Origin: a virus | DNA: 64,000 nucleotides | Virus record (IMG/VR): IMGVR_UViG_3300025383_000001 | Location: 2,657-66,656 of that record | Strand: one strand, 5' to 3' | Shown here: positions 9,212 through 50,501 of the stretch, in pieces | Layout: each line of letters starts with the position of its first letter | Position numbering within the stretch: position 1 is the stretch's first letter | Program-made: the position numbers and the translations under genes | The notes under the pieces: generated by a model | What the model was told of the DNA's origin: nothing | What the model saw: the letters and a program-made list of their open reading frames with translations, nothing else | Database searches by the model: none

Positions 9212-9239
9212 ACCCCACCCAAGCGGTGGGGTCTTTTTT
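9212..9239 (+). terminator. Intrinsic terminator at the convergence of the two arms
   Basis: ACCCCACC-CAAGC-GGTGGGGT followed by CTTTTTT. Confidence 0.75.
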
Positions 9240-12200
9240 AGTCCTTACTGTAATCCAACATACCTTCTAAGCGTGGCATTAGTTTTTTGTTTACGCCCAT
9301 GCCTCCAGTAATATCAGCAAGCGCTCTATCTTTATATCGCTTAGTTACTGACTTTAATAAAGTGTCTGGGTTAATTGGTAGCTCTGGAACTTGCTCATTG
9401 TATTTAGTTATTTTTTCTAACACTTTATCAAGCATAACTTCATCACCACCGTCCAATGCAATAAAAAACGCATTTAACAAATTAGTGTGTTTCTTCATAA
9501 TTGTTTCGTTTACGTTTTTCATTTCAATAGCAGCTTTTTGTGCTTGGGCAACACTTTCTGGCGAGAAGCCGAGCATCTGTGCGAGAGCTTCACCTGGGTT
9601 TACATCTTGTACTAAATTGCCTTTAATGCTGGTAGCCTCTCCTTCAGCCATGTATCGTGCACCAACCAATACGTTTTTAATAGCTGCAGGCATCATTGCT
9701 TCCATAGCACGCTCTGTATAACCTTCGTTATAGCGCTTCAAAGCCTCTGGGTAGTTAACCAAGATAGCGCCAGCCGACGGCCCCAACGCATTGATAAACA
9801 TATTTTTAACGTAGTCGGTTTCGTCTGAACCTTTACGAACATCTGGGAACCATAGGTCTGGTAAGTTGGTGTTCATACGGTCAGCAAAGTTTAATCCAGT
9901 AGCTTGCGACAATAAACCACGGGAAATACTATCTCCTACAAACCCACCAAACGTGCGGTTAGCCCAGTTTTTGAACCAGTTCTCTGGATCAAACTCGTCG
10001 TCATCCCCAAACACAGCATTAAACGCAGATGCAAGACCAGAAAAAATAAACCATAAAGGCATGCCTGTTAAACCGGCAGTTAAGAAAGACATACCCATCA
10101 TGCCAAGGAATGCATCTCTAGCTTGTTTTTTCATTTCAGCTAATTCAGCACGTTTAGCATCCATGATTTCTTTAACCACAGGTTCTGGGGTTTTGTCGTC
10201 TGCTAGCTCTTGTTCTAGAATTCTTAACTCTACGGCTGAGTTTTGCCCAATAGCTTTATAGAATGTACGGAACATAAGCATGCTTAAGTTTTGTGGGTAC
10301 ATCTTAAACTGCAAGAGAATGCTGGCTAAGTTGCCACGGAAATAGCGTGGCTTATTGGTAGTGTTGTAGTTAAACATGGTCTCTTGTGTAAGATCCCGTG
10401 CCTCATCCAAAGCGGCTTCATATGCTTTTTGGGGAGTTTTATTTTTAGAATGCTTCTCGTAAGCTAACTCAAATGAAGTCATATAGGATACTTCACGGTT
10501 AAACTTTTCGGCTGCGTGGAACGGCAAGCTAGCGTAATACATAAACTTCTGCCACCTTCCAGTGTAGTCGGCTGAGGGGTGCTCACCAATAGACACAGCG
10601 TCATGGGTTAATGTAGTATCAATAACGTTTCGATTAACACCCGCTGCATATACGTCTGCTAGGGACATACCCTTAGGCAACGAAATAGTTTTACCTTCTT
10701 TATTTACAAAGCTAGTCTGACCTTGTAAATTTGCACGTGCTAAAGACAAGAATTCGTAACGCCCAGTATCGCCGTTCACATACCCAGTACCACCAAGCAT
10801 GCGCATATACTTAGTAACAACCCTACCTACTTTTTTAACTCCACCATACCTAGACCCAGCTACAGGAATATAAAGACCAGGAACAGCCATCATGTTAACT
10901 ACTGCTGAAGCAGGAGAAGTTAAGAAGTTTAAGAATCCAAAGTGCGTAAGGTATGTAGTAAGCTTGTTTTGTTTAGGCGGTTCTAGCACACCATCTTTAA
11001 ATTGCTTAGCTAATTCATTAGACACGTCGCCATAAACTGCTTTTTCTTCTGGGGTCGGCATTGTTTTAAGGCGCATTTTAGATGCTTCGATAATATTAAA
11101 CAGTGCAGGCATGTGTTGGAAACGAGCACGCTGATATGCAATACGTTCACGTGATAAACCAAAAGCACGAAGCATATCTTGGCTGGGGCCCGCTACGTTC
11201 TCACGGTGTAAGAACATCTTTTTAATACTTTCAGAAGGTAACAACTCTAAATAATATTGCCCAAACTGATCTTTGAGTTCGTTTTGCAGCGCAGCAAGTT
11301 GGTTAGCAGCGACCGATGGATCTGTAGCAGAGCTAGTCATAACCCCTGCAGTAGTCTCGTCAATCATTTCGTAAATCTTATTAAGCTGCGAAACATCGTT
11401 AAGTTTTTGATTTAAAACTTCATTGAATCCTTGTCCGGGCCAAAGCTGTTTATCTGCATCTTGTGGGGTCATTCCCATGTCAACTAGCTTTTTCTTTTGC
11501 TTTTCTAGTTCGGCATCACGAGCAAATGCATCCTCAAACTGCATGAAGATTTTCTTTTGACCTTGGCCGACCATCAAGAAATACTCACCAAAACGTTTGA
11601 TTGGAAAGTATGGCCGGATAATCTTTTCTTCAGTAGCCTTTTTAAAATCAAGTTTTTTCTTGGCTATTTCTTCATCAGATAAGCCCTTAACTTTACCGTT
11701 TTCTTCAATGCGTTGGAGCTGCACTTGGACATATTCATTCATACGGCGCTCATAAAACTCACGCACTTGACGATATATTTCTACCGCAACCCCGCCGTCT
11801 TTACCGTTTGTTAGTTCTTGCCAAGCTGCTTTTAACTCTGGCTCTTTTAGCATTACTTTGGGATCATAACCAATACTTTTTGGGTCTGGGTCAACTTTTT
11901 TAAGTGTAGCCTCAATCATGGTTTTCCCTAACTGCTTAGACTTCTCAGGGTTATTATTGATTAAGTTACTCCACTTAGTAATGATTGGATCGCCTTCTTT
12001 AAGAATAGCGTTACGTGTAGCAATCATCGCATCTACTTCTTTAACGTAAAGCTTTAACTGTGGCATGTTATCGCCATATATGTCAGCAAGCTGGTCTACG
12101 CTAAGTGCGCCAAGCAAGTATTTACGGTATTGGTTGTTTAAGCTACCAAAGAACTTTTTGACATTAGTTTTATCTAGATCTTGCCATTTAGTTCTGTTCT

Positions 12201-15200
12201 TAATTAAGTTGCTTATCCACTTGGTGCGTTCGCCAGGGTTGAGCGTAAACTTACCGTCACGTACATCGTAGCGGCTAGGGGACCACAAAAGATCCTTACC
12301 ATTAGTAACTTCGCTATTGCTACGAGCAGAGAACAAAACGTCGGCGTTTGCTAGCGTATGGAAAAGCACGTTATCTATGCCGATTAACTTAGCAACAAGC
12401 TGGATAAACTTAGACCAAGCTGACATGTTTGTTTCCATGCTAGCTTTCATTTCCCGCAATTCTTTTTGGAATTCTGGTCGGCTAAACGCTTCTGCTACAA
12501 ACTCGTGCAGATTGTTATACCCATAAGCTTTTGGGTTTTTAGTATGTTTTTTGGCAAACTCATATAGCCCTTCCAACTTACCCAAAGCAATCTGTTGTTC
12601 TTTATTTAACTTACCTGGGTTATCAATAGCCCAATGAGTAGCGGAGTGAGTCAGCTCATGCGTAATAACATAGTTAGAATTACCGCCCGTAGTTAAGCTT
12701 AAACCAATAGCATTAAACCTAGTAAAGTATGTGCCAGGAGAATTTAATGTTTTGTATGTCTTCTCGTAAATTTCAATTACGTCTTTTAAATCTTCTTGGA
12801 ACATGCCTGGAGGTATGCTAAGTTTGCCTTCTTTCAAGTCTTTAAACGCTTGCAACAGTTCAGTTACAGGCATGCGCATCTTAGACTCGTCAAACTTGTT
12901 ACGGTATACCTCTGGATAAATCTGCTGGACCCACTTAATGATCCTGTTCTTTTGGCCCTCGACCCCTTTTAGACCTGCCATAGCTAAGTCGTACTGTACA
13001 TCATCCCAACCTAATCTAGTGGTTAACCCTAACTCACTTAAGCGTTCTGCAAGGGCAGATATAAACTTACCGCCTGTGTTTTTGAGGGCTTTAAGCACAC
13101 CATTGATGTCGTTTTGACCGATTGCAATCGTAACTGATGGATGTGCAGTTTTAAACAGCGGGTCGTTTAACGGAACCTGGTCGGCTTTGGGGCTTGTGTT
13201 TTCAGCCTTAGTTACAACAGGATCAGCAAACAAATTGTCTAAGTCATCAATGTCAAGGCGCTCTGGGTGGTCTTCTAGATTGTCCAGTAATTCATCTATT
13301 TCAACTTTAGACTTACGTTTTTTCTTTTCTTTTGTTGGTGCAGCAGCTTCTACTTTTGGCGCACTTAATAATGTATCAACTTCGGCAAAGTCTTTTTCTA
13401 GAAGATTTGCAATTTCTTGTTGTTGTGCCGGATTAGCACGTTTGTATTTTTTATCAATTGCCTCTAGCTTTTTCATTGTAAGCGTAGTAGAACCGGCAAT
13501 TTGGCTCATCTTGTCTTTTATATCTTGCAGTTCTTTTGGTGACGTTCTATTTACGTCAGTAAAACTAACACCAAATTCACCAAGCTTATCGCTTAGTTTT
13601 TGAATGTATTCTTCGGCTTTCTGAATTAATGGGTGGTCTTTGTATGTGCCATACCGCTGCTCATCTTTTGGATAGCCAGTCAACCAAGGAGTTAATGCGC
13701 TTGGTTTAGTTTCTTCTGCCGTAGTTTCCGCAGTAGTAGTTTCTTCTTTATTGCCCTTAAGATTTTCAACCTGGTCAAGTATTAAGTTTTGTTCTTTAAT
13801 AACTTCTTCTAGGCGTTCTTTTACCGCAACTCTTTCATCTGCATAATCGGGCTTATATTCTAAATCGTAATATTTAGTGTTTAACTCTTCATAGATCTTT
13901 TGGAGCTCGTCGTATTTAGAAAGTAGTTTATTTTTTGTTTCAATAAGCTCTAGTACGTTTGGCGCACCTTCTTGTTTTGGTGCTAACTTCTCTAAGCGAC
14001 CATCAATATCGTTAATGCGAGTTTGTAATGCATCGTATTCTTCACGGCGTTTAGTACCTGTTCTAGGTAGATTGCCGTTTTTATACAGCATAGATTGCTG
14101 CTCAACAGCGTAGTTATTTTTAATCTCAAGCAGTTCATCATAAGACTTTTGGTCTAATGCACTTGGCTGTACTTCATCTCGTACTTCAGTTCCTCCAGTA
14201 GTAGACTCAGTTCGTTCCACTCCTCCAAGGTCAGTTGTATCAGGTCCTGTGGCAGTGGTGCGTTCTTCTCCAGACACAGAAACGCCTGGCTCACCTGCTC
14301 CGGTGTCAGTTCCAGTATCTTCACCTTCTGTCTCCTTACTAATATTTTTAGCTGCTGTAACAAACGAATTAACTTCTTCTTCAGTAGCTTCTCTACCGGT
14401 TTTCTCGGCAAAGTCTTGTTTGAAGACTTCTGCTCTATCTTTGTCTAATTGCTGTTCGCCTTTTCTTTCAGCACGCTTTTCTAAGTACCCTTGTGTACCG
14501 CCAGTGATACCACCGAAACCACCGCCGCCGACAGCACCACGAACACCAGACTCTACTATACGATTAAATTCTTTGCTGCCCCAAGCTTCTGGATGATCTT
14601 GCACAAACTTTTCTGCAAAAATACTAATTGCTTCTTGAGCTGCTTCTGTCGGTGCCTCTTCTGCTGCACCAGTAATAGCTGTTCCAATAGCTGCTCTAGC
14701 GATGCCTGGTTTCATTCCAGACTTTTCCAAAAGCTTTTCTACAATACCAGCTTTAGATCCTGGGGTTAATTTACTTAATAATGTTGCTGGCAATACCGAA
14801 TCTAATGCAGCAGAAACAGAGCCTGCAAGAATAGCTGCACCTGGCTCTAACTGGCCGCCAGTCTCTTCGTAAATGTTCTGGAATATCTCTGGGGCGTTAA
14901 GTGCATAAGAACCTAAGTATGTACCAACGCCTTGGCCAATAGCAACACGTTTAGCTGCTTCTTTTGCAGCCATACCAGCAACACCCCTAGCGGCCAAAGC
15001 TCCACCACCAACGCCCGGAACCAATGCTGTGAGCATGTTTGGAACCTGCTCGGCTACGGTTTCTAGGGCAAACGGAACATAATCGCCTACACCCTTAACA
15101 TCTGACAAGCTCTTATAACGAGCCCCGTATTTTTGCTCAATTTCTTTTTGGGTTTCGGCAGCCTCTGCCATTTGTTTACGTGCGTATTCATCAGCACCTA

Positions 15201-15462
15201 CGGCGCTAGCAGCCATTGCTGGCAACACGTCAAATAAAGCCGAACCCGTCTGTTTAGCGCCACGTACAATACCACGCCCAAGCATATCCACCAACCCAGT
15301 AGGCTTGCTTCCTTCTTCTGAGTTAGCAACGTATCTACCTAGCTCATCAGGCTGTGGTTTGCCTTTTTGCGACTCTAAATGGTTTAGAATCTTTTCTTTG
15401 GCGACAGCATGATCTTCATCAGCAATATCGTAGTGCTGGCCTTGGTATTCATAAATAGGCAT
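9238..15462 (-). CDS. Giant (2074 aa) internal virion / ejection protein with zincin-like metallopeptidase motif
   Basis: Last gene of the structural arm; Ala/Gly-rich N-terminus; THELTH..EFVAE HExxH motif; C-terminal region like large polyvalent-protein domains. Confidence 0.7.
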   Translation of the reverse strand: MPIYEYQGQHYDIADEDHAVAKEKILNHLESQKGKPQPDELGRYVANSEEGSKPTGLVDMLGRGIVRGAKQTGSALFDVLPAMAASAVGADEYARKQMAEAAETQKEIEQKYGARYKSLSDVKGVGDYVPFALETVAEQVPNMLTALVPGVGGGALAARGVAGMAAKEAAKRVAIGQGVGTYLGSYALNAPEIFQNIYEETGGQLEPGAAILAGSVSAALDSVLPATLLSKLTPGSKAGIVEKLLEKSGMKPGIARAAIGTAITGAAEEAPTEAAQEAISIFAEKFVQDHPEAWGSKEFNRIVESGVRGAVGGGGFGGITGGTQGYLEKRAERKGEQQLDKDRAEVFKQDFAEKTGREATEEEVNSFVTAAKNISKETEGEDTGTDTGAGEPGVSVSGEERTTATGPDTTDLGGVERTESTTGGTEVRDEVQPSALDQKSYDELLEIKNNYAVEQQSMLYKNGNLPRTGTKRREEYDALQTRINDIDGRLEKLAPKQEGAPNVLELIETKNKLLSKYDELQKIYEELNTKYYDLEYKPDYADERVAVKERLEEVIKEQNLILDQVENLKGNKEETTTAETTAEETKPSALTPWLTGYPKDEQRYGTYKDHPLIQKAEEYIQKLSDKLGEFGVSFTDVNRTSPKELQDIKDKMSQIAGSTTLTMKKLEAIDKKYKRANPAQQQEIANLLEKDFAEVDTLLSAPKVEAAAPTKEKKKRKSKVEIDELLDNLEDHPERLDIDDLDNLFADPVVTKAENTSPKADQVPLNDPLFKTAHPSVTIAIGQNDINGVLKALKNTGGKFISALAERLSELGLTTRLGWDDVQYDLAMAGLKGVEGQKNRIIKWVQQIYPEVYRNKFDESKMRMPVTELLQAFKDLKEGKLSIPPGMFQEDLKDVIEIYEKTYKTLNSPGTYFTRFNAIGLSLTTGGNSNYVITHELTHSATHWAIDNPGKLNKEQQIALGKLEGLYEFAKKHTKNPKAYGYNNLHEFVAEAFSRPEFQKELREMKASMETNMSAWSKFIQLVAKLIGIDNVLFHTLANADVLFSARSNSEVTNGKDLLWSPSRYDVRDGKFTLNPGERTKWISNLIKNRTKWQDLDKTNVKKFFGSLNNQYRKYLLGALSVDQLADIYGDNMPQLKLYVKEVDAMIATRNAILKEGDPIITKWSNLINNNPEKSKQLGKTMIEATLKKVDPDPKSIGYDPKVMLKEPELKAAWQELTNGKDGGVAVEIYRQVREFYERRMNEYVQVQLQRIEENGKVKGLSDEEIAKKKLDFKKATEEKIIRPYFPIKRFGEYFLMVGQGQKKIFMQFEDAFARDAELEKQKKKLVDMGMTPQDADKQLWPGQGFNEVLNQKLNDVSQLNKIYEMIDETTAGVMTSSATDPSVAANQLAALQNELKDQFGQYYLELLPSESIKKMFLHRENVAGPSQDMLRAFGLSRERIAYQRARFQHMPALFNIIEASKMRLKTMPTPEEKAVYGDVSNELAKQFKDGVLEPPKQNKLTTYLTHFGFLNFLTSPASAVVNMMAVPGLYIPVAGSRYGGVKKVGRVVTKYMRMLGGTGYVNGDTGRYEFLSLARANLQGQTSFVNKEGKTISLPKGMSLADVYAAGVNRNVIDTTLTHDAVSIGEHPSADYTGRWQKFMYYASLPFHAAEKFNREVSYMTSFELAYEKHSKNKTPQKAYEAALDEARDLTQETMFNYNTTNKPRYFRGNLASILLQFKMYPQNLSMLMFRTFYKAIGQNSAVELRILEQELADDKTPEPVVKEIMDAKRAELAEMKKQARDAFLGMMGMSFLTAGLTGMPLWFIFSGLASAFNAVFGDDDEFDPENWFKNWANRTFGGFVGDSISRGLLSQATGLNFADRMNTNLPDLWFPDVRKGSDETDYVKNMFINALGPSAGAILVNYPEALKRYNEGYTERAMEAMMPAAIKNVLVGARYMAEGEATSIKGNLVQDVNPGEALAQMLGFSPESVAQAQKAAIEMKNVNETIMKKHTNLLNAFFIALDGGDEVMLDKVLEKITKYNEQVPELPINPDTLLKSVTKRYKDRALADITGGMGVNKKLMPRLEGMLDYSKD

Positions 15463-45543: not shown

Positions 45544-47103
45544 TTACACGTTGTAGTAGCCCTTACCTCGGCTACTTCTAAATCCTCGAACCTCGTCTTC
45601 TTCATCAGAATCGAGTTGAATAAAACCACCTCGTCTAAATCGCAATAACGCCTGGCTCATTGAGTCAACTAAGTCATCGTGCTCACCTGATGGGAAACTT
45701 GCCACTTCTTCCACCAATTCTTCTGCCCAATGAGTATTAGGTACCCATACTCTACCACTAGCAAATATATCTGCTACTGCATTTAGCCTCGCAATTTTAT
45801 CATTACCTTTGCTCGGAACATACTCCTGAACGGGTATTCCCATAGCTCGTAACTCAAAAACCAGAGGAGCACCCGATGCTTTTGCTTCAACAATCAAGCA
45901 ATCTGGCTGCCACTCTTTATAGTCATCATACGCCTTTTGTTTTAATTCTGGAAACTCCATGCGTTGCTTGAACGAATTTAGCAAAATAATGTTAGGTACA
46001 GACAAGCCACGGGAGTTCTCCTGATAGAACACACCCCATGTCGTGCAAGCGCAATAGTCGGACCGCTGGGTTTTTAGGAAGGCCGTATCCCAAGACTGGA
46101 TAGTAAACTCACAAAACGGTGGGTCATCATGCTCCCATATTTGCCACCACTCACGCTTAATAATCGCCGATACATCTGATGTCGGCTGCTGCATATACTG
46201 AGCCATCCACTTGCCATTAGGCAATTCAGTACGCAGTGCTTCTAATTCAGTTAGCTTCCAGAACTGTGGCCATAGCGGGCCACCATCGGGCAAAATTGCA
46301 GGAAATTCAATGACTTCCCACTGCTCACCGCTTCTGTTTTGTGCTGCTTTGACTACTTGCCCGGTCAAATCTTTCTTTGACCAGCGTGTCATAACTATAA
46401 TAATTGCGCCACCTGGCTGTAGACGCTGACGTGGACCAGAGGTGTACCACTCGTATGTCTTATCGTAAATCTCAGGGTTGTTCTCGCTTAGGGCTGCTTC
46501 TTGTTCTGAGTGGGGGTCGTCAATAATGAGGATATCTGCGCCCTTACCCGTAACTGCGCCTCCCACACCGATAGCAAAATAGTCTCCCCCTTGGTTAGTT
46601 GCCCAGCGCCCAGCAGCTTTAGAGTCAGCCTGTAGTCCAACTCCTGGGAAGATAGACTTATAAACGTCGGAATCCACAAGATTACGGACTTTACGTCCAA
46701 AACCCACCGCCAACTCCGCCGTATGAGACGTCTGAATGACTTTCTTCTTAGGGAATTTTCCAAGGAACCAAGCAGGTAACAAGTAAGAAGCAAATTCAGA
46801 CTTAGTATGCCGAGGAGGCATATTAATAATAAGTCGTTTAATCTGTCCATTTGCTACCCTTTCAAATGCGTCTGCCATTTCGTTGTGATGTGCGCCATCA
46901 ATGAAGTCAGGCCACACCCTATGGACAAAATCCATGAATTTTTCCTGACAATTCTCCTTTTGTACTGCGTCTACTGTCGTATCTAGTTGATCTTTAAGGC
47001 TTCTTAGCTGCGCATCAGTCAAAGAATCAATATTATCTAGTAAATATTGTAGTTCTTGTTGTCCCAATTTGGGACTGTCGGCCTTACTCGTCTGTTTCTG
47101 CAT
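45544..47103 (-). CDS. terL: Terminase large subunit
   Basis: INMPPRHTKS Walker A variant, LIIDDP Walker B, MTRW, QSWDTA nuclease, HDDLVDS. Confidence 0.95.
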   Translation of the reverse strand: MQKQTSKADSPKLGQQELQYLLDNIDSLTDAQLRSLKDQLDTTVDAVQKENCQEKFMDFVHRVWPDFIDGAHHNEMADAFERVANGQIKRLIINMPPRHTKSEFASYLLPAWFLGKFPKKKVIQTSHTAELAVGFGRKVRNLVDSDVYKSIFPGVGLQADSKAAGRWATNQGGDYFAIGVGGAVTGKGADILIIDDPHSEQEAALSENNPEIYDKTYEWYTSGPRQRLQPGGAIIIVMTRWSKKDLTGQVVKAAQNRSGEQWEVIEFPAILPDGGPLWPQFWKLTELEALRTELPNGKWMAQYMQQPTSDVSAIIKREWWQIWEHDDPPFCEFTIQSWDTAFLKTQRSDYCACTTWGVFYQENSRGLSVPNIILLNSFKQRMEFPELKQKAYDDYKEWQPDCLIVEAKASGAPLVFELRAMGIPVQEYVPSKGNDKIARLNAVADIFASGRVWVPNTHWAEELVEEVASFPSGEHDDLVDSMSQALLRFRRGGFIQLDSDEEDEVRGFRSSRGKGYYNV

Positions 47104-47701
47104 CTTTTATCTCTACTGCTTCCACGTCTGTGACGTGTTTTAGCTGATCTAAACGAGATTCAGTCTTGGTTTTTGCGTTAATTGTGGTCGCCTGCATCAA
47201 TTGTGTGATGCGTTCTTTAATAGCGGCCTTTAATTCATCAGAAGTTTGGTGTGTAATTGTGATTTCTGAGCGTTCTGTGAACAAATCTGACGCTTTTCCG
47301 AGTAATTCGAGCGCTTTTAGTGCTGTTTTGTTATCTTCGTCCTGACTAATCTCCATTAGTCGGTTCATTACAATCGTGCGAACCTGTATTTTGTCCGCAA
47401 CAATTTGTTTTTCATACTCAGATATGTAACCACCTAGCTTATATGCTACGCCTGGATTAGTTAGAGCGTTCTCCGTGCTGTCCGCTTTCTTTGCTGTCTC
47501 TTTAACAGCGCCCATTTTTTCAAACATCTGCTTAGCAGCTTCGTCTTCTTCGGGTGTATAGGACATGTCTGCGCCGAGCTCAGCTAAAAGCAGTGCAGTA
47601 TTGCCAGCGACTTTTGCACGCTGCTCAAATGTCTGGCCTTTTTCTGGGTAGGCTAGATCGGGTACGGGTTTGTCGAGGTTTGGCTCGATTGGTATTTGCA
47701 T
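47084..47701 (-). CDS. Terminase small subunit (putative)
   Basis: Immediately upstream of TerL; LKALELLGK..LFTER helical motif. Confidence 0.65.
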   Translation of the reverse strand: MQIPIEPNLDKPVPDLAYPEKGQTFEQRAKVAGNTALLLAELGADMSYTPEEDEAAKQMFEKMGAVKETAKKADSTENALTNPGVAYKLGGYISEYEKQIVADKIQVRTIVMNRLMEISQDEDNKTALKALELLGKASDLFTERSEITITHQTSDELKAAIKERITQLMQATTINAKTKTESRLDQLKHVTDVEAVEIKDAETDE

Positions 47702-47811
47702 AGACCTGGTTTGGTAGGTTATATGCTGCCGACTATACCACAAAATGAAAATGGGGTACTACTAGAACCAATGTATGTGAAGCATTAAGAAACCTAGTTT
47801 CCCCCACCAAG

Positions 47812-47934
47812 TTATTTTACTTTGAAAAACTCTTTAATACTAGATAGCACTGACTGAACCCAGAACTCATTGATCTGCTGGTAATGCTTAGCCATCTGCT
47901 CTACTTTTTTGTATTGCTCTTCAAATGAAAACAT
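47812..47934 (-). CDS. 40-aa amphipathic peptide (phasin-like?); absent from the ORF track
   Basis: MFSFEEQYKKVEQMAKHYQQINEFWVQSVLSSIKEFFKVK; strong TAAGGAGA RBS. Confidence 0.65.
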   Translation of the reverse strand: MFSFEEQYKKVEQMAKHYQQINEFWVQSVLSSIKEFFKVK

Positions 47935-47952
47935 AATTTTCTCCTTAAGTTT

Positions 47953-47983
47953 TGCTGCAATGCAGCATAAAAGAATTCTATCA
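47953..47983 (-). promoter_or_regulatory. Extended -10 promoter with palindromic operator TGCTGC-N3-GCAGCA over the predicted start site
   Basis: Minus strand TG-A-TAGAAT (47983-47975); palindrome at 47953-47967. Confidence 0.55.
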
Positions 47984-48272
47984 CAAAAATATTATTGGGG
48001 GTATGGCACCAAATAAAAAAGGTATGGGGGGTGTTTTCTAGGATTAAATTAACAACATGTTGTCAGGAGATTAAGGCCCCCCTATGCACAAGAATAGATT
48101 GGGGTTAGTTGGTACTTATTGCCGGTTTTTAAATTTACATAATCTATTGTGCACATTATTGTGTATAGGTGTTGCCAGGGTCCTCTTTACCCTATCTTGG
48201 GGGCTGGGGGTAGGTAGGGTTCATATAACCAGCATTTAAAGCCCCTGGGAGCAGGTTTTATTAGACAGATAG

Positions 48273-48333
48273 TTTACTGCTGGGATTTGTCCTGGTGTAT
48301 AATGTACTTACCAGGTAGCAAGGTGTTACCTGG
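48273..48333 (+). promoter_or_regulatory. Promoter (TATAAT 48298-48303) followed by inverted repeat CCAGGTAGCA-AGG-TGTTACCTGG
   Basis: Perfect -10, weak -35 (TTTACT); 10-bp-arm palindrome right after the predicted +1. Confidence 0.5.
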
Positions 48334-48365
48334 ATTTAACCTAACCTTAAATGGGAGATTGTAAA

Positions 48366-48989
48366 ATGGAAAATACTTTCCAATTATCAGAAGTACAAAA
48401 CGACATGTTCACCAATATTGGCGTAACATTCGCAGTAGCTGAACTAGATGCTGATGCAGCACTGGAAGATTTTGCCAGGGCAGTAACAGTAAAGAATGAC
48501 CAGGGAGAGGATGTCGCATCCTATGATTTATGGGAATCAGGCATGGCAGTAGTGAAACAGGCTTATGCTGGTAAGAAAGGTGTAACCCTGGATTCAGATA
48601 CTATCAAGTCTATGGTTAAACGATTCTATCGTCGCCTGGAAGAGATGTATGGTTTAACTAAGCCAGCTAAGCCCAGCGCTGAAGGTCAGAAAAAAGCAGC
48701 GCAGCGCACAAAAGCCCAGGCAGCATTAGATGAACTCAAGTCTAAATCTTATGATGAACTCCAAGAAGAGATGGCTAATCTATTGGCTAAGCCCAGTACT
48801 GAAACCCTTGCTGCTGCTGGTAAGATCGCCAAGGCTATCAAGGCTAAAGAAAAGGATGATGTTAAAGACCGTATGACTGAGATCAAGGCTAAGCAAGCCG
48901 AAGTAGCTAAGCTAGCTAAACAATGCCTGGTGGAAGATATCCTGGAAGAATGCCTGGAGCTCTTAGCCGCTAACATCACTATTCAATAA
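48366..48989 (+). CDS. Early hypothetical protein, paralogue A
   Basis: GGGAGA RBS; shares KKAxQRxKA..SKSxxELxxEMANLLAxP with 49923-50501. Confidence 0.75.
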   Translation: MENTFQLSEVQNDMFTNIGVTFAVAELDADAALEDFARAVTVKNDQGEDVASYDLWESGMAVVKQAYAGKKGVTLDSDTIKSMVKRFYRRLEEMYGLTKPAKPSAEGQKKAAQRTKAQAALDELKSKSYDELQEEMANLLAKPSTETLAAAGKIAKAIKAKEKDDVKDRMTEIKAKQAEVAKLAKQCLVEDILEECLELLAANITIQ

Positions 48990-49791: not shown

Positions 49792-49820
49792 TTGACATTT
49801 CCCACCAAGTGTGCTATACT
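49792..49820 (+). promoter_or_regulatory. Strong early sigma70 promoter
   Basis: TTGACA, 17 bp, TATACT with TG extension. Confidence 0.88.
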
Positions 49821-49922
49821 GTATTTGTGAGTCGGAAATTGTTTTTGGTTCACATCAGGACAAAGTGGCAGAGTGACACTAAGTCCCAAACCCTAAACCT
49901 CACTCTATTGGAGATTGTTATT

Positions 49923-50501
49923 ATGGCAACAAAAACTGTAGTTAAAACGGCAGAAATGCTATCTCAATTTGACGAGCAAGAAAAGGCTCGTTTGGTATCT
50001 GCAACCCTTGCAATGGACTCTGGTGAAGACGAAGTTGCGGAAGCAATCGCAACGATTGCTCGTGAACTCGGTAGCAAACCTAGTTGGGCTCGCTATTCAA
50101 TGGGTCGCATTATCTTCGTTGAAACCCTCGAAGCACAGGGCAAAACCGAGGACGCTATCAAGTCCAAGTGGAAGCGGGTTTGTCGTGACTCTGCTATCAC
50201 TATTCCTGATAGTGATGACCCGCAAGCCAAGAAAAAGGCAGAGCAAAGGGCAAAGGCTCGTGCTGTATTTGAGAGCAAGTCCGACTCTGAACTAGAAGCG
50301 GAAATGGCAAACCTCTTGGCTCAACCTACTCTCAAGCGTATTGAGGAAGCCAAGAAACTTGGCAAGGAACTTGAGCAACGGCAGAAGGACGCAGGCAAGG
50401 ACATCAAAGCAGAACTTGCAGAACTCCGCAAGGCTATCCGTGACAAGGTCGCACTCATTGAGGACATTGAACAACTGCGTGAAATCCTCGACCAACTATA
50501 A
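49923..50501 (+). CDS. Early hypothetical protein, paralogue B
   Basis: GGAGA RBS, ATG 49923; paralogue of 48366-48989. Confidence 0.75.
   Translation: MATKTVVKTAEMLSQFDEQEKARLVSATLAMDSGEDEVAEAIATIARELGSKPSWARYSMGRIIFVETLEAQGKTEDAIKSKWKRVCRDSAITIPDSDDPQAKKKAEQRAKARAVFESKSDSELEAEMANLLAQPTLKRIEEAKKLGKELEQRQKDAGKDIKAELAELRKAIRDKVALIEDIEQLREILDQL

Follow-up and report, generated by a model that had tools for sequence, protein, structure and literature searches.

Results and discussion

A putative PhaR-controlled transcription unit in a phage genome

The window analysed here is a stretch of 64,000 nucleotides (nt) of viral DNA, corresponding to bases 2657-66656 of the 66,656-bp IMG/VR virus record IMGVR_UViG_3300025383_000001, a genome with terminal repeats, rated 100% complete. 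On its minus strand, at 47983-47812, it contains a short cassette which appears to be a phage transcription unit, composed of an extended -10 element, an operator for the host regulator PhaR lying over the transcription start, a strong ribosome binding site (RBS) and a gene coding for a one-helix protein of 40 amino acids (aa). The probability of this reading, which is based on the comparison of sequences, is estimated at about 0.6. PhaR is here a host protein: judging from the genomes searched, it is encoded by the bacteria that hold the same site, and not by the phage. The micro-protein would probably be made only when the host holds polyhydroxybutyrate (PHB).

The control proposed is the same as that of the host's own phasin genes. 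In a host without PHB, free PhaR would occupy the operator, TGCTGCATTGCAGCA, and block the promoter; in a host with PHB granules, PhaR would be drawn onto the granules, and the micro-protein would be made. Three points of this scheme are inferred, namely the binding of host PhaR to the site, the relief of repression by PHB, and an action of the peptide on the granule surface or a granule protein. A wider interpretation, in which a widespread freshwater phage group wires the micro-protein, and in some lineages the late control region, to PhaR, and the helix acts on the granule layer, mobilising carbon, is more tentative and should be taken as possible rather than probable; the action on the granule could consist, for example, in displacing phasins or PhaR, or in opening the granule to depolymerase.

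A preliminary description of the region, made from the sequence alone, had listed an extended -10, a palindrome, an RBS, a 40-aa open reading frame (ORF) and a hairpin followed by a U-tract, at the head of the late arm. Each of these elements is present on the minus strand (coordinates in Table 1), and the location is borne out by the gene layout around 47,980. The operator is a perfect palindrome, TGCTGC-ATT-GCAGCA, which starts 7 nt past the -10 and spans about +1 to +15 of the promoter, called P1. The latter was not listed by a two-hexamer promoter scan, because it has no -35. In related cassettes, AGGAG-type sites occupy a position equivalent to that of the Shine-Dalgarno sequence. The exact 15-mer is found once in the window, and the exact strict form once in the complete 66.7-kb phage; when up to one mismatch is allowed, the window contains 2 matches, compared to 0.25 expected. 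The window alone makes a weak case, and the argument rests on the comparison with other sequences.

Conservation of the operator with the gene

The micro-protein is present at 67 viral loci. The core TGCRNYGCA occurs at most 120 nt upstream of the ATG in all the 66 loci (47 distinct sequences) for which at least 60 nt of upstream sequence are available, while the remainder of the same loci holds 9 core matches in 188,182 nt. Conservation of the palindrome with the ORF, on which the preliminary description had made its proposal depend, was therefore found at every locus that could be tested. The logo of the 47 distinct sites reads A-W-W-T-G-T-TGCA-N-Y-GCA-A-C-A-W-A-W, with consensus TGT-TGCA-N-YGCA-ACA and A/T-rich arms. 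Conservation extends to the flanks: 45 sites have T at position -3, 35 have G and 12 have A at -2, 44 have C at +10, and all 47 have A at +11.

The promoter layouts of 49 distinct cassettes, as read from their sequence, fall into a few types. The operator abuts the -10 in 24 of them, and starts 7 nt past it in two, the window and locus L037; in 22, it lies 9-10 nt upstream of TATACT or TATAAT, with TTGCAN in the place of the -35. One layout is ambiguous. A dimer bound in any of the unambiguous arrangements would be placed so as to block RNA polymerase.

The same data bear on the idea that the palindrome works as an RNA hairpin, stabilising the 5' end of the messenger, or as a cruciform, rather than as a protein operator. 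The window would fit it, as its arms can pair perfectly over 6+6 nt and would lie at the mRNA 5' end. In 24 of the 49 layouts, however, the transcript would start inside the palindrome, as the -10 abuts it, and in 22 the palindrome is upstream of the -10. Pairing is also lost beyond the TGCA half-sites: 12 of 47 sites have A at position -2, while the partner base remains C in 44, and position -1 varies between T, G and C against a mostly constant A. An RNA or cruciform function is, on these grounds, very hard to credit.

A second inverted repeat, TGTGTA-ATATAC-TACACA or TGTAT...ATACA, centred on the -10, is found in the cassettes labelled type B (e.g. L040, L054, L072 and L097); judged by eye, its arms appear to co-vary between loci.

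The cassettes are found in various gene neighbourhoods. Out of 68, 24 stand directly before a gene resembling terS (small terminase subunit), 19 are convergent with a gene of 319-340 aa and 9 with a gene of 115 aa, the rest being in other contexts. By this comparison the cassette is mobile within phage genomes, occupying at least three gene contexts. A canonical terminator-like site is located within 130 nt after 22 of 54 distinct cassettes; the window copy is without one.

The strict pattern matches the cassette site in four of five related phages with complete or near-complete genomes. The exception is genome G305, where the cassette operator reads TAT-TGCA... and falls outside the strict pattern, being caught by the core search. 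Two extra strict matches (G305:C1:60769-60783 and G309:C1:13498-13512, loci L261 and L262) lie within a conserved structural gene of 231-241 aa, where they encode A-[AS]-Q-Q-F; they were rejected as operators and are regarded as look-alikes kept by the protein sequence.

Comparison with PhaR operators and bacterial loci

Four published motifs were used for comparison. The PhaR motif of R. eutropha is YTKNTGCRNYGCANMAR, i.e. YTKN-TGCRNYGCA-NMAR (PMC12849132); that of S. meliloti AniA/PhaR, supported by electrophoretic mobility shift assays and mutated sites, is WNWDDN-YGCRNYGCR-NHHWNW (PMC12542648); H. seropedicae PhbF recognises TG[N]TGC[N]3GCAA, as defined by DNase footprint (PMC3206438); and CTGC[N]3GCAG is the R. 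sphaeroides site, as cited in PMC3206438. The window site is an exact instance of this last form (the GCAG variant). The phage sites keep both the fixed and the degenerate positions of the published motifs. They have a TGCR-N-YGCA core with one central base, the flanks and A/T-rich arms, and an overlap with the -35 or with the -10/+1 region.

As an independent check, species genomes were scanned for the 17-mer WTGTTGCANTGCAACAW; the counts cover 80 loci among the matches listed, and the 146 ORFs starting beside the site in these loci were scanned for Pfam families. The 17-mer adjoins a PHB gene in 21 of the 80 listed loci, coding for Phasin_2 in 16 cases, PHB_depo_C in 4 and PhaC_N in one. According to the record titles, 52 of the 80 belong to what we take to be Alpha- or Betaproteobacteria. 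In the order of one site-holding genome, ATGYTGCANYGCAACAW was found in 64 of 301 genomes, including the unpublished G298 and G209, compared to 3 for the reversed control.

The similarity extends to the arrangement of the promoter. Phasin promoters of the Burkholderiales type consist of an operator, a -35, a -10 (TATACT or TAGAAT), a spacer of 7-9 nt and ATG[CT]TGCA-N-TGCAACA; the window, with TAGAAT, 7 nt and then the operator, has a layout equal to that of a bacterial phasin promoter. The DNA-binding domain of PhaR, PF07879 (PHB_acc_N), was detected in all nine site-holding bacterial genomes tested (4/4 and 5/5), and is absent from the single phage genome searched. Taken with the 66/66 linkage and the occurrence of the same site before bacterial PHB genes, the fit to the four motifs upholds the PhaR-type operator of the preliminary description: as a sequence assignment, it is strongly supported.

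The palindrome could also be the target of another phage or host regulator that recognises a similar half-site, in which case it would resemble PhaR sites by convergence. This is made conceivable by the core, which is only 9 nt long and occurs in the window at about chance frequency, but the match to the published motifs spans 15-21 positions, with the R/N/Y degeneracy and AT-rich arms among them. Moreover, the identical 17-mer marks phasin, depolymerase and synthase genes, and PhaR is found in all bacteria tested; the phage is without a recognised regulator and without a PHB_acc_N domain, and the sole gene always linked to the site codes for a peptide predicted to form one helix, with no DNA-binding fold. 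A different regulator therefore seems quite improbable, and PhaR remains the preferred candidate.

The micro-protein family

Thirty-one loci were found through the neighbouring terS-like gene, and two of them contain a homologue of the micro-protein at the equivalent position. A profile built from the window ORF and these two homologues was used for a wider search, in which 99 of 100 scored candidates were protein clusters of 38-75 aa (E <= 1). An exhaustive HMMER search of 1.84 billion representatives returned 50 sequences at E <= 1e-3, one of them spurious. This one, the sole long match (P0128, 377 aa), was dropped, being a repetitive INO80F-like protein. Members of the family come only from viral or metagenomic DNA, and are 38-47 aa in size, besides 15 'longer' forms; all of the 8 of these that were inspected turned out to be start-codon miscalls, reading through promoter and operator.

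Residues K9, E12, F24, W25 and K34 are invariant across 50 sequences. Among 11 distinct 40-codon ORFs, the differences at codon positions 1, 2 and 3 are 661, 362 and 1150, respectively, the third position varying most. These sequence comparisons identify the 40-aa ORF as a real, conserved and widespread gene.

An AlphaFold model predicts a single helix, spanning residues 2-38, with a predicted local distance difference test (pLDDT) score of 89.8. The hydrophobic moment is 0.334, compared to 0.139 +/- 0.07 in shuffled sequences, 0.65% of which reach this value. The helix and its moment agree with the amphipathic helical ORF noticed in the preliminary description. The idea of a ribbon-helix-helix autoregulator was dropped, since the model is one continuous helix. 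The micro-protein has no Pfam family, even at E <= 10, no PHROG match, no tblastn match among 50,697 cultured-phage records, no relative in the scanned species genomes and no usable match in the ESM Atlas.

Observations weighing against PhaR control

Several results speak against the cassette being a PhaR-controlled unit with a granule-acting product. Firstly, the core TGCRNYGCA by itself is not enriched, with 8 occurrences in the window and 6.28 expected. Perfect 6-N3-6 palindromes of any sequence are also common (28 in the window vs 18.8 +/- 4.5 in shuffles), and CTGC-N3-GCAG is found 5 times, compared to 1.35 expected, 4 of the 5 copies being within ORFs. As short cores and palindromes of this size are either near chance or common, the site stands out only by its sequence and by its conservation elsewhere. 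Secondly, at least two cores within 150 nt are found in 15 of the 21 listed PHB-gene loci (a second core is present in 5 of the 59 other listed loci), compared to one per phage cassette. Thirdly, the G+C content of the phage is about 43%, compared to 56-71% for the recovered bacterial phasin loci. Fourthly, the micro-protein profile, compared by hhalign with 14 Phasin_2 proteins from the bacterial loci, gave a probability of 0.3% (E 0.2), and 1% when compared with PhaR, and 40 aa are far below the size of any phasin recovered here (113-198 aa). Lastly, the core is also found upstream of terS in 7 of 24 terS-type relatives that do not encode the peptide (Table 1). The operator is hence not strictly tied to the micro-protein, and may also belong to, and serve, the late control region.

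With respect to base composition, site loci of 36-49% G+C were found in five genomes of the searched order, all of which encode PhaR. Examples are a locus of 47% G+C, where the site precedes a Phasin_2 gene, and one of 44%, where it precedes a gene for a short-chain dehydrogenase. Hosts matching the phage in both G+C and PhaR are thus plausible. The sequencing runs listed as containing phage sequence were 13 of DNA and none of RNA; one run not flagged as a possible source, labelled as a freshwater metagenome, contains 71% of the sampled words.

As for the product, the 'phasin-like' label given to the ORF in the preliminary description is not supported. Of the features of a phasin, the micro-protein has the amphipathic alpha-helix, and neither the homology (see the Pfam and hhalign results above) nor the size of about 100-200 aa. 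It is a new family, amphipathic and not homologous to phasins; any function assigned to it is a guess.

The leader of the terminase genes

The cassette of the window is followed by a hairpin and a U-rich tract, located before the terS-like gene. Nothing terminator-like was reported at the hairpin, on the minus strand, by either a promoter/terminator scan or a separate terminator scan. The 101-nt RNA containing it is no more stable than its shuffles (-17.5 vs -16.85 +/- 2.92 kcal/mol, z -0.22), many relatives have ACCUUUAC or ACCUAAAAA where the U run would be, and the combination of G+C-rich stem, short loop and U run, typical of intrinsic terminators, is not found at 47806-47752.

The hairpin is nevertheless conserved as a structure. 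All 14 examples analysed fold alike, and in relatives without the peptide the same hairpin directly follows the upstream promoter. When 9 distinct sequences were aligned with a covariance model, 94.8% of the cells were paired, compared to 79.2% in shuffles, none of 500 reaching the observed value; five pairs are changed on both sides, and the covariation score is 0.308, compared to 0.086 at most when slid. These figures lean towards structure, as the alignment was fitted to the model. Alignment by MAFFT followed by RNAalifold gave the basal stem only, because indels misalign the arms, and was replaced by single folds and the covariance model. Neither 47500-48500 nor five related loci have an Rfam match above chance level.

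Since the same element is found in the terminase leader of relatives without the micro-protein, the hairpin is, on sequence evidence, a conserved structured leader element of the terminase operon, and not the terminator of the cassette. The preliminary description had included hairpin and U-tract in the micro-gene unit; they are reassigned here to the terS leader. It may act as a leader RNA, as a site of processing or, given as DNA close to the packaging genes, as a binding or recognition site.

Some relatives have, instead of the hairpin after the micro-gene, another conserved element, about 90 nt long (GGGCAGTTAAGCCGAC...GCAGCTAC..TTGCCC). It has no Rfam match in the four loci searched (L036, L037, L052 and L015).

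A -10-like hexamer, TA[TC]A[CG]T, is found between hairpin and terS in all of 25 distinct sequences, ending in most of them 28-32 nt before the ATG. In the window it is part of a promoter-like element, P2, and the sequence around it (47736-47756) directly repeats that of the P1 region (47979-47999; repeat family D2). Judging by its sequence, P2 probably serves the late genes as a promoter of their own, and therefore the packaging genes need not depend on read-through.

These features are relevant to the possibility that the operator gates the late operon, with its packaging and structural genes, instead of or besides the micro-gene; virion production would then be tied to host PHB, and the peptide would be an add-on of the leader. 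In the window, in L005/L088 and in L037, the cassettes do lie between an upstream promoter region conserved in the family and the terS leader hairpin, and the 24 cassettes directly before a terS-like gene are in keeping with such a role. The same is true of the seven peptide-less relatives retaining the PhaR-type core: five of these have, after the core, the window's GCAGCAAAACTT/GCAACAAAACTT (AAAACTT) and then a -10-like TAGGAAT, with no RBS and ORF. On the other hand, the P2 hexamer, the likely promoter of the late genes, lies downstream of the operator in every sequence compared, 44 of the 68 cassettes lie elsewhere, and many of these converge on the gene that follows, and a canonical terminator-like site ends 22 of the 54 distinct cassettes. 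Control of the late operon is accordingly considered unlikely as the explanation of the site, and control of the micro-gene is preferred. The preliminary description had also suggested a tuning of the packaging genes by read-through; as a mechanism acting at the hairpin this is disfavoured by P2, while the idea of a link to the packaging genes is kept alive by the peptide-less relatives just mentioned.

Relation to known systems

The closest parallel is the circuit of PhaR (PhbF, AniA) and phaP in PHB-storing Alpha- and Betaproteobacteria, such as Cupriavidus necator/R. eutropha, Herbaspirillum seropedicae, Sinorhizobium meliloti, Rhodobacter sphaeroides and Paracoccus denitrificans. The phage unit resembles it in the sequence and geometry of the operator (TGCR-N-YGCA, TG.../...CA flanks and AT-rich arms), in its position over the -35 or the -10/+1 region of a sigma70-type promoter, and in having a small amphipathic helical protein as product. 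It differs in being carried by virulent-looking phage genomes, outside a pha locus, with one operator per promoter where bacteria usually have two; its 40-aa product has no detectable Phasin_2 homology, and the regulator is encoded neither nearby nor elsewhere in the phage.

Phages are known to set the timing of genes through host regulators of stress or nutrition. Comparable systems are phage 'morons' and phage promoters with boxes for host regulators, such as LexA boxes and the PhoB and NtcA boxes of cyanophages. Like a moron, the cassette is an additional small gene under a promoter of its own, which some relatives have and others lack (it is in 2 of the 31 terS-type loci), and which occurs in several gene contexts; unlike morons, it is followed by a canonical terminator in 22 of 54 distinct cases only, the window copy not being among them. 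As in the regulator-box promoters, the unit is putatively connected with a transcription factor of the host that signals the physiological state of the cell, the difference being that this factor is a sensor of PHB granules. The listings and abstracts searched report no phage promoter tied to such a sensor.

The arrangement of P1, hairpin, P2 and terS, taken by itself, can be compared with the PR'-6S RNA-tR' late leader of lambda. Both have a conserved hairpin with a U-rich tail within about 60-220 nt downstream of a late-operon promoter, and the packaging genes come after it. Unlike in lambda, the hairpin is not a canonical terminator, a Q-like protein was not recognised, and a promoter-like hexamer follows the hairpin.

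A micro-protein family restricted to viral and metagenomic sequences and tied at all the loci tested to one well-defined host operator makes a cleaner case than most. The circuit is directly testable, the 40-residue product is a candidate for a new granule-acting peptide, and the site provides a host clue, PhaR-bearing proteobacteria, for an uncultured phage group. If the wider interpretation is true, the phage reads the carbon reserve of its host and mobilises stored carbon for phage production.

Genomic context and other features

The micro-gene cassette opens the late arm, in the switch region from which the two arms diverge. Minus-strand genes, from about 47,980 down to 9,238, code for packaging, structural and lysis functions (large terminase, portal, major head protein, endolysin and a virion protein of 2074 aa), and the plus strand, from 48,351 on, carries replication genes (DNA polymerase, helicase, primase and exonuclease). 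Among the recognised genes of the window there is no integrase, RNA polymerase, sigma factor or regulator. The closest large terminases from cultured phages are 46-58% identical and belong to phage 023Pt_psg01, phage DSL-LC04, Pelagibacter phages HTVC027P/023P and Synechococcus/Planktothrix phages; at the DNA level, the segment 47000-48400 has no match in cultured phage records. The terS-like ORF has no family match in PHROG or Pfam, and was named by its position.

Table 1. Location of the features described in the text. Coordinates refer to the window, unless a locus is named.
Feature	Coordinates or loci	Strand	Remarks
P1, extended -10	47975..47983	-	TG-A-TAGAAT; -35 not recognisable; read from sequence
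PhaR-type operator	47953..47967	.	TGC-TGCA-T-TGCA-GCA; core TGCRNYGCA at 47956-47964
Shine-Dalgarno sequence	47940..47947	-	TAAGGAGA, 5 nt ahead of ATG; read from sequence
Micro-protein gene, 40 aa	47812..47934	-	ATG at 47934; MFSFEEQYKK...KEFFKVK; one amphipathic helix predicted
Hairpin of the terminase-operon leader	47752..47806	-	three tiers: G4-5:C4-5 base, covarying middle stem, loop GCUUCACAUAC
U-rich tract	47742..47751	-	UUUUCAUUUU; directly after hairpin; not scored as terminator
P2, promoter-like element	47732..47740	-	TG-G-TATAGT; ends 30 nt before terS ATG
Putative small terminase subunit (terS), 205 aa	47084..47701	-	ATG at 47701; by position only; 31 related loci
Large terminase subunit	45544..47103	-	PHROG 38, E 2e-104
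Same hairpin at other loci	L003 697-750, L005 1815-1868, L007 121-171, L013 167-217, L006 2880-2938, L072 1662-1711		
Element of about 90 nt	L036 ~1630-1725, L037 ~1460-1555, L052, L070, L074		similar in L015/L016, upstream of terS
PhaR-type core in peptide-less relatives	L006, L007, L009, L010, L013, L021, L024		162-235 nt upstream of terS

The control region between the two arms (47985-48350) contains, like its relatives, many runs of C5-6 or G5-6 in conserved contexts, such as AAAACACCCCCC at 48026-48034 on the minus strand, and ATACCCCCAATAAT and CCCCCGGGGGGTATATAAT in relatives. A phage regulator that was not recognised may bind at these runs; across the whole window, ACACCCCCC shows no enrichment.

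The late protein of 2074 aa, encoded at 9238-15462 on the minus strand, matches PHROGs of very large virion proteins and of DarB-like antirestriction proteins. On the plus strand, the first two larger proteins of the early arm, of 212 aa (48351-48989) and 230 aa (49809-50501), are rich in K, E and A and have no family match in PHROG or Pfam. They share a C-terminal stretch (...ELQEEMANLLAKP... and ...ELEAEMANLLAQP..., respectively), and by sequence look like paralogues.

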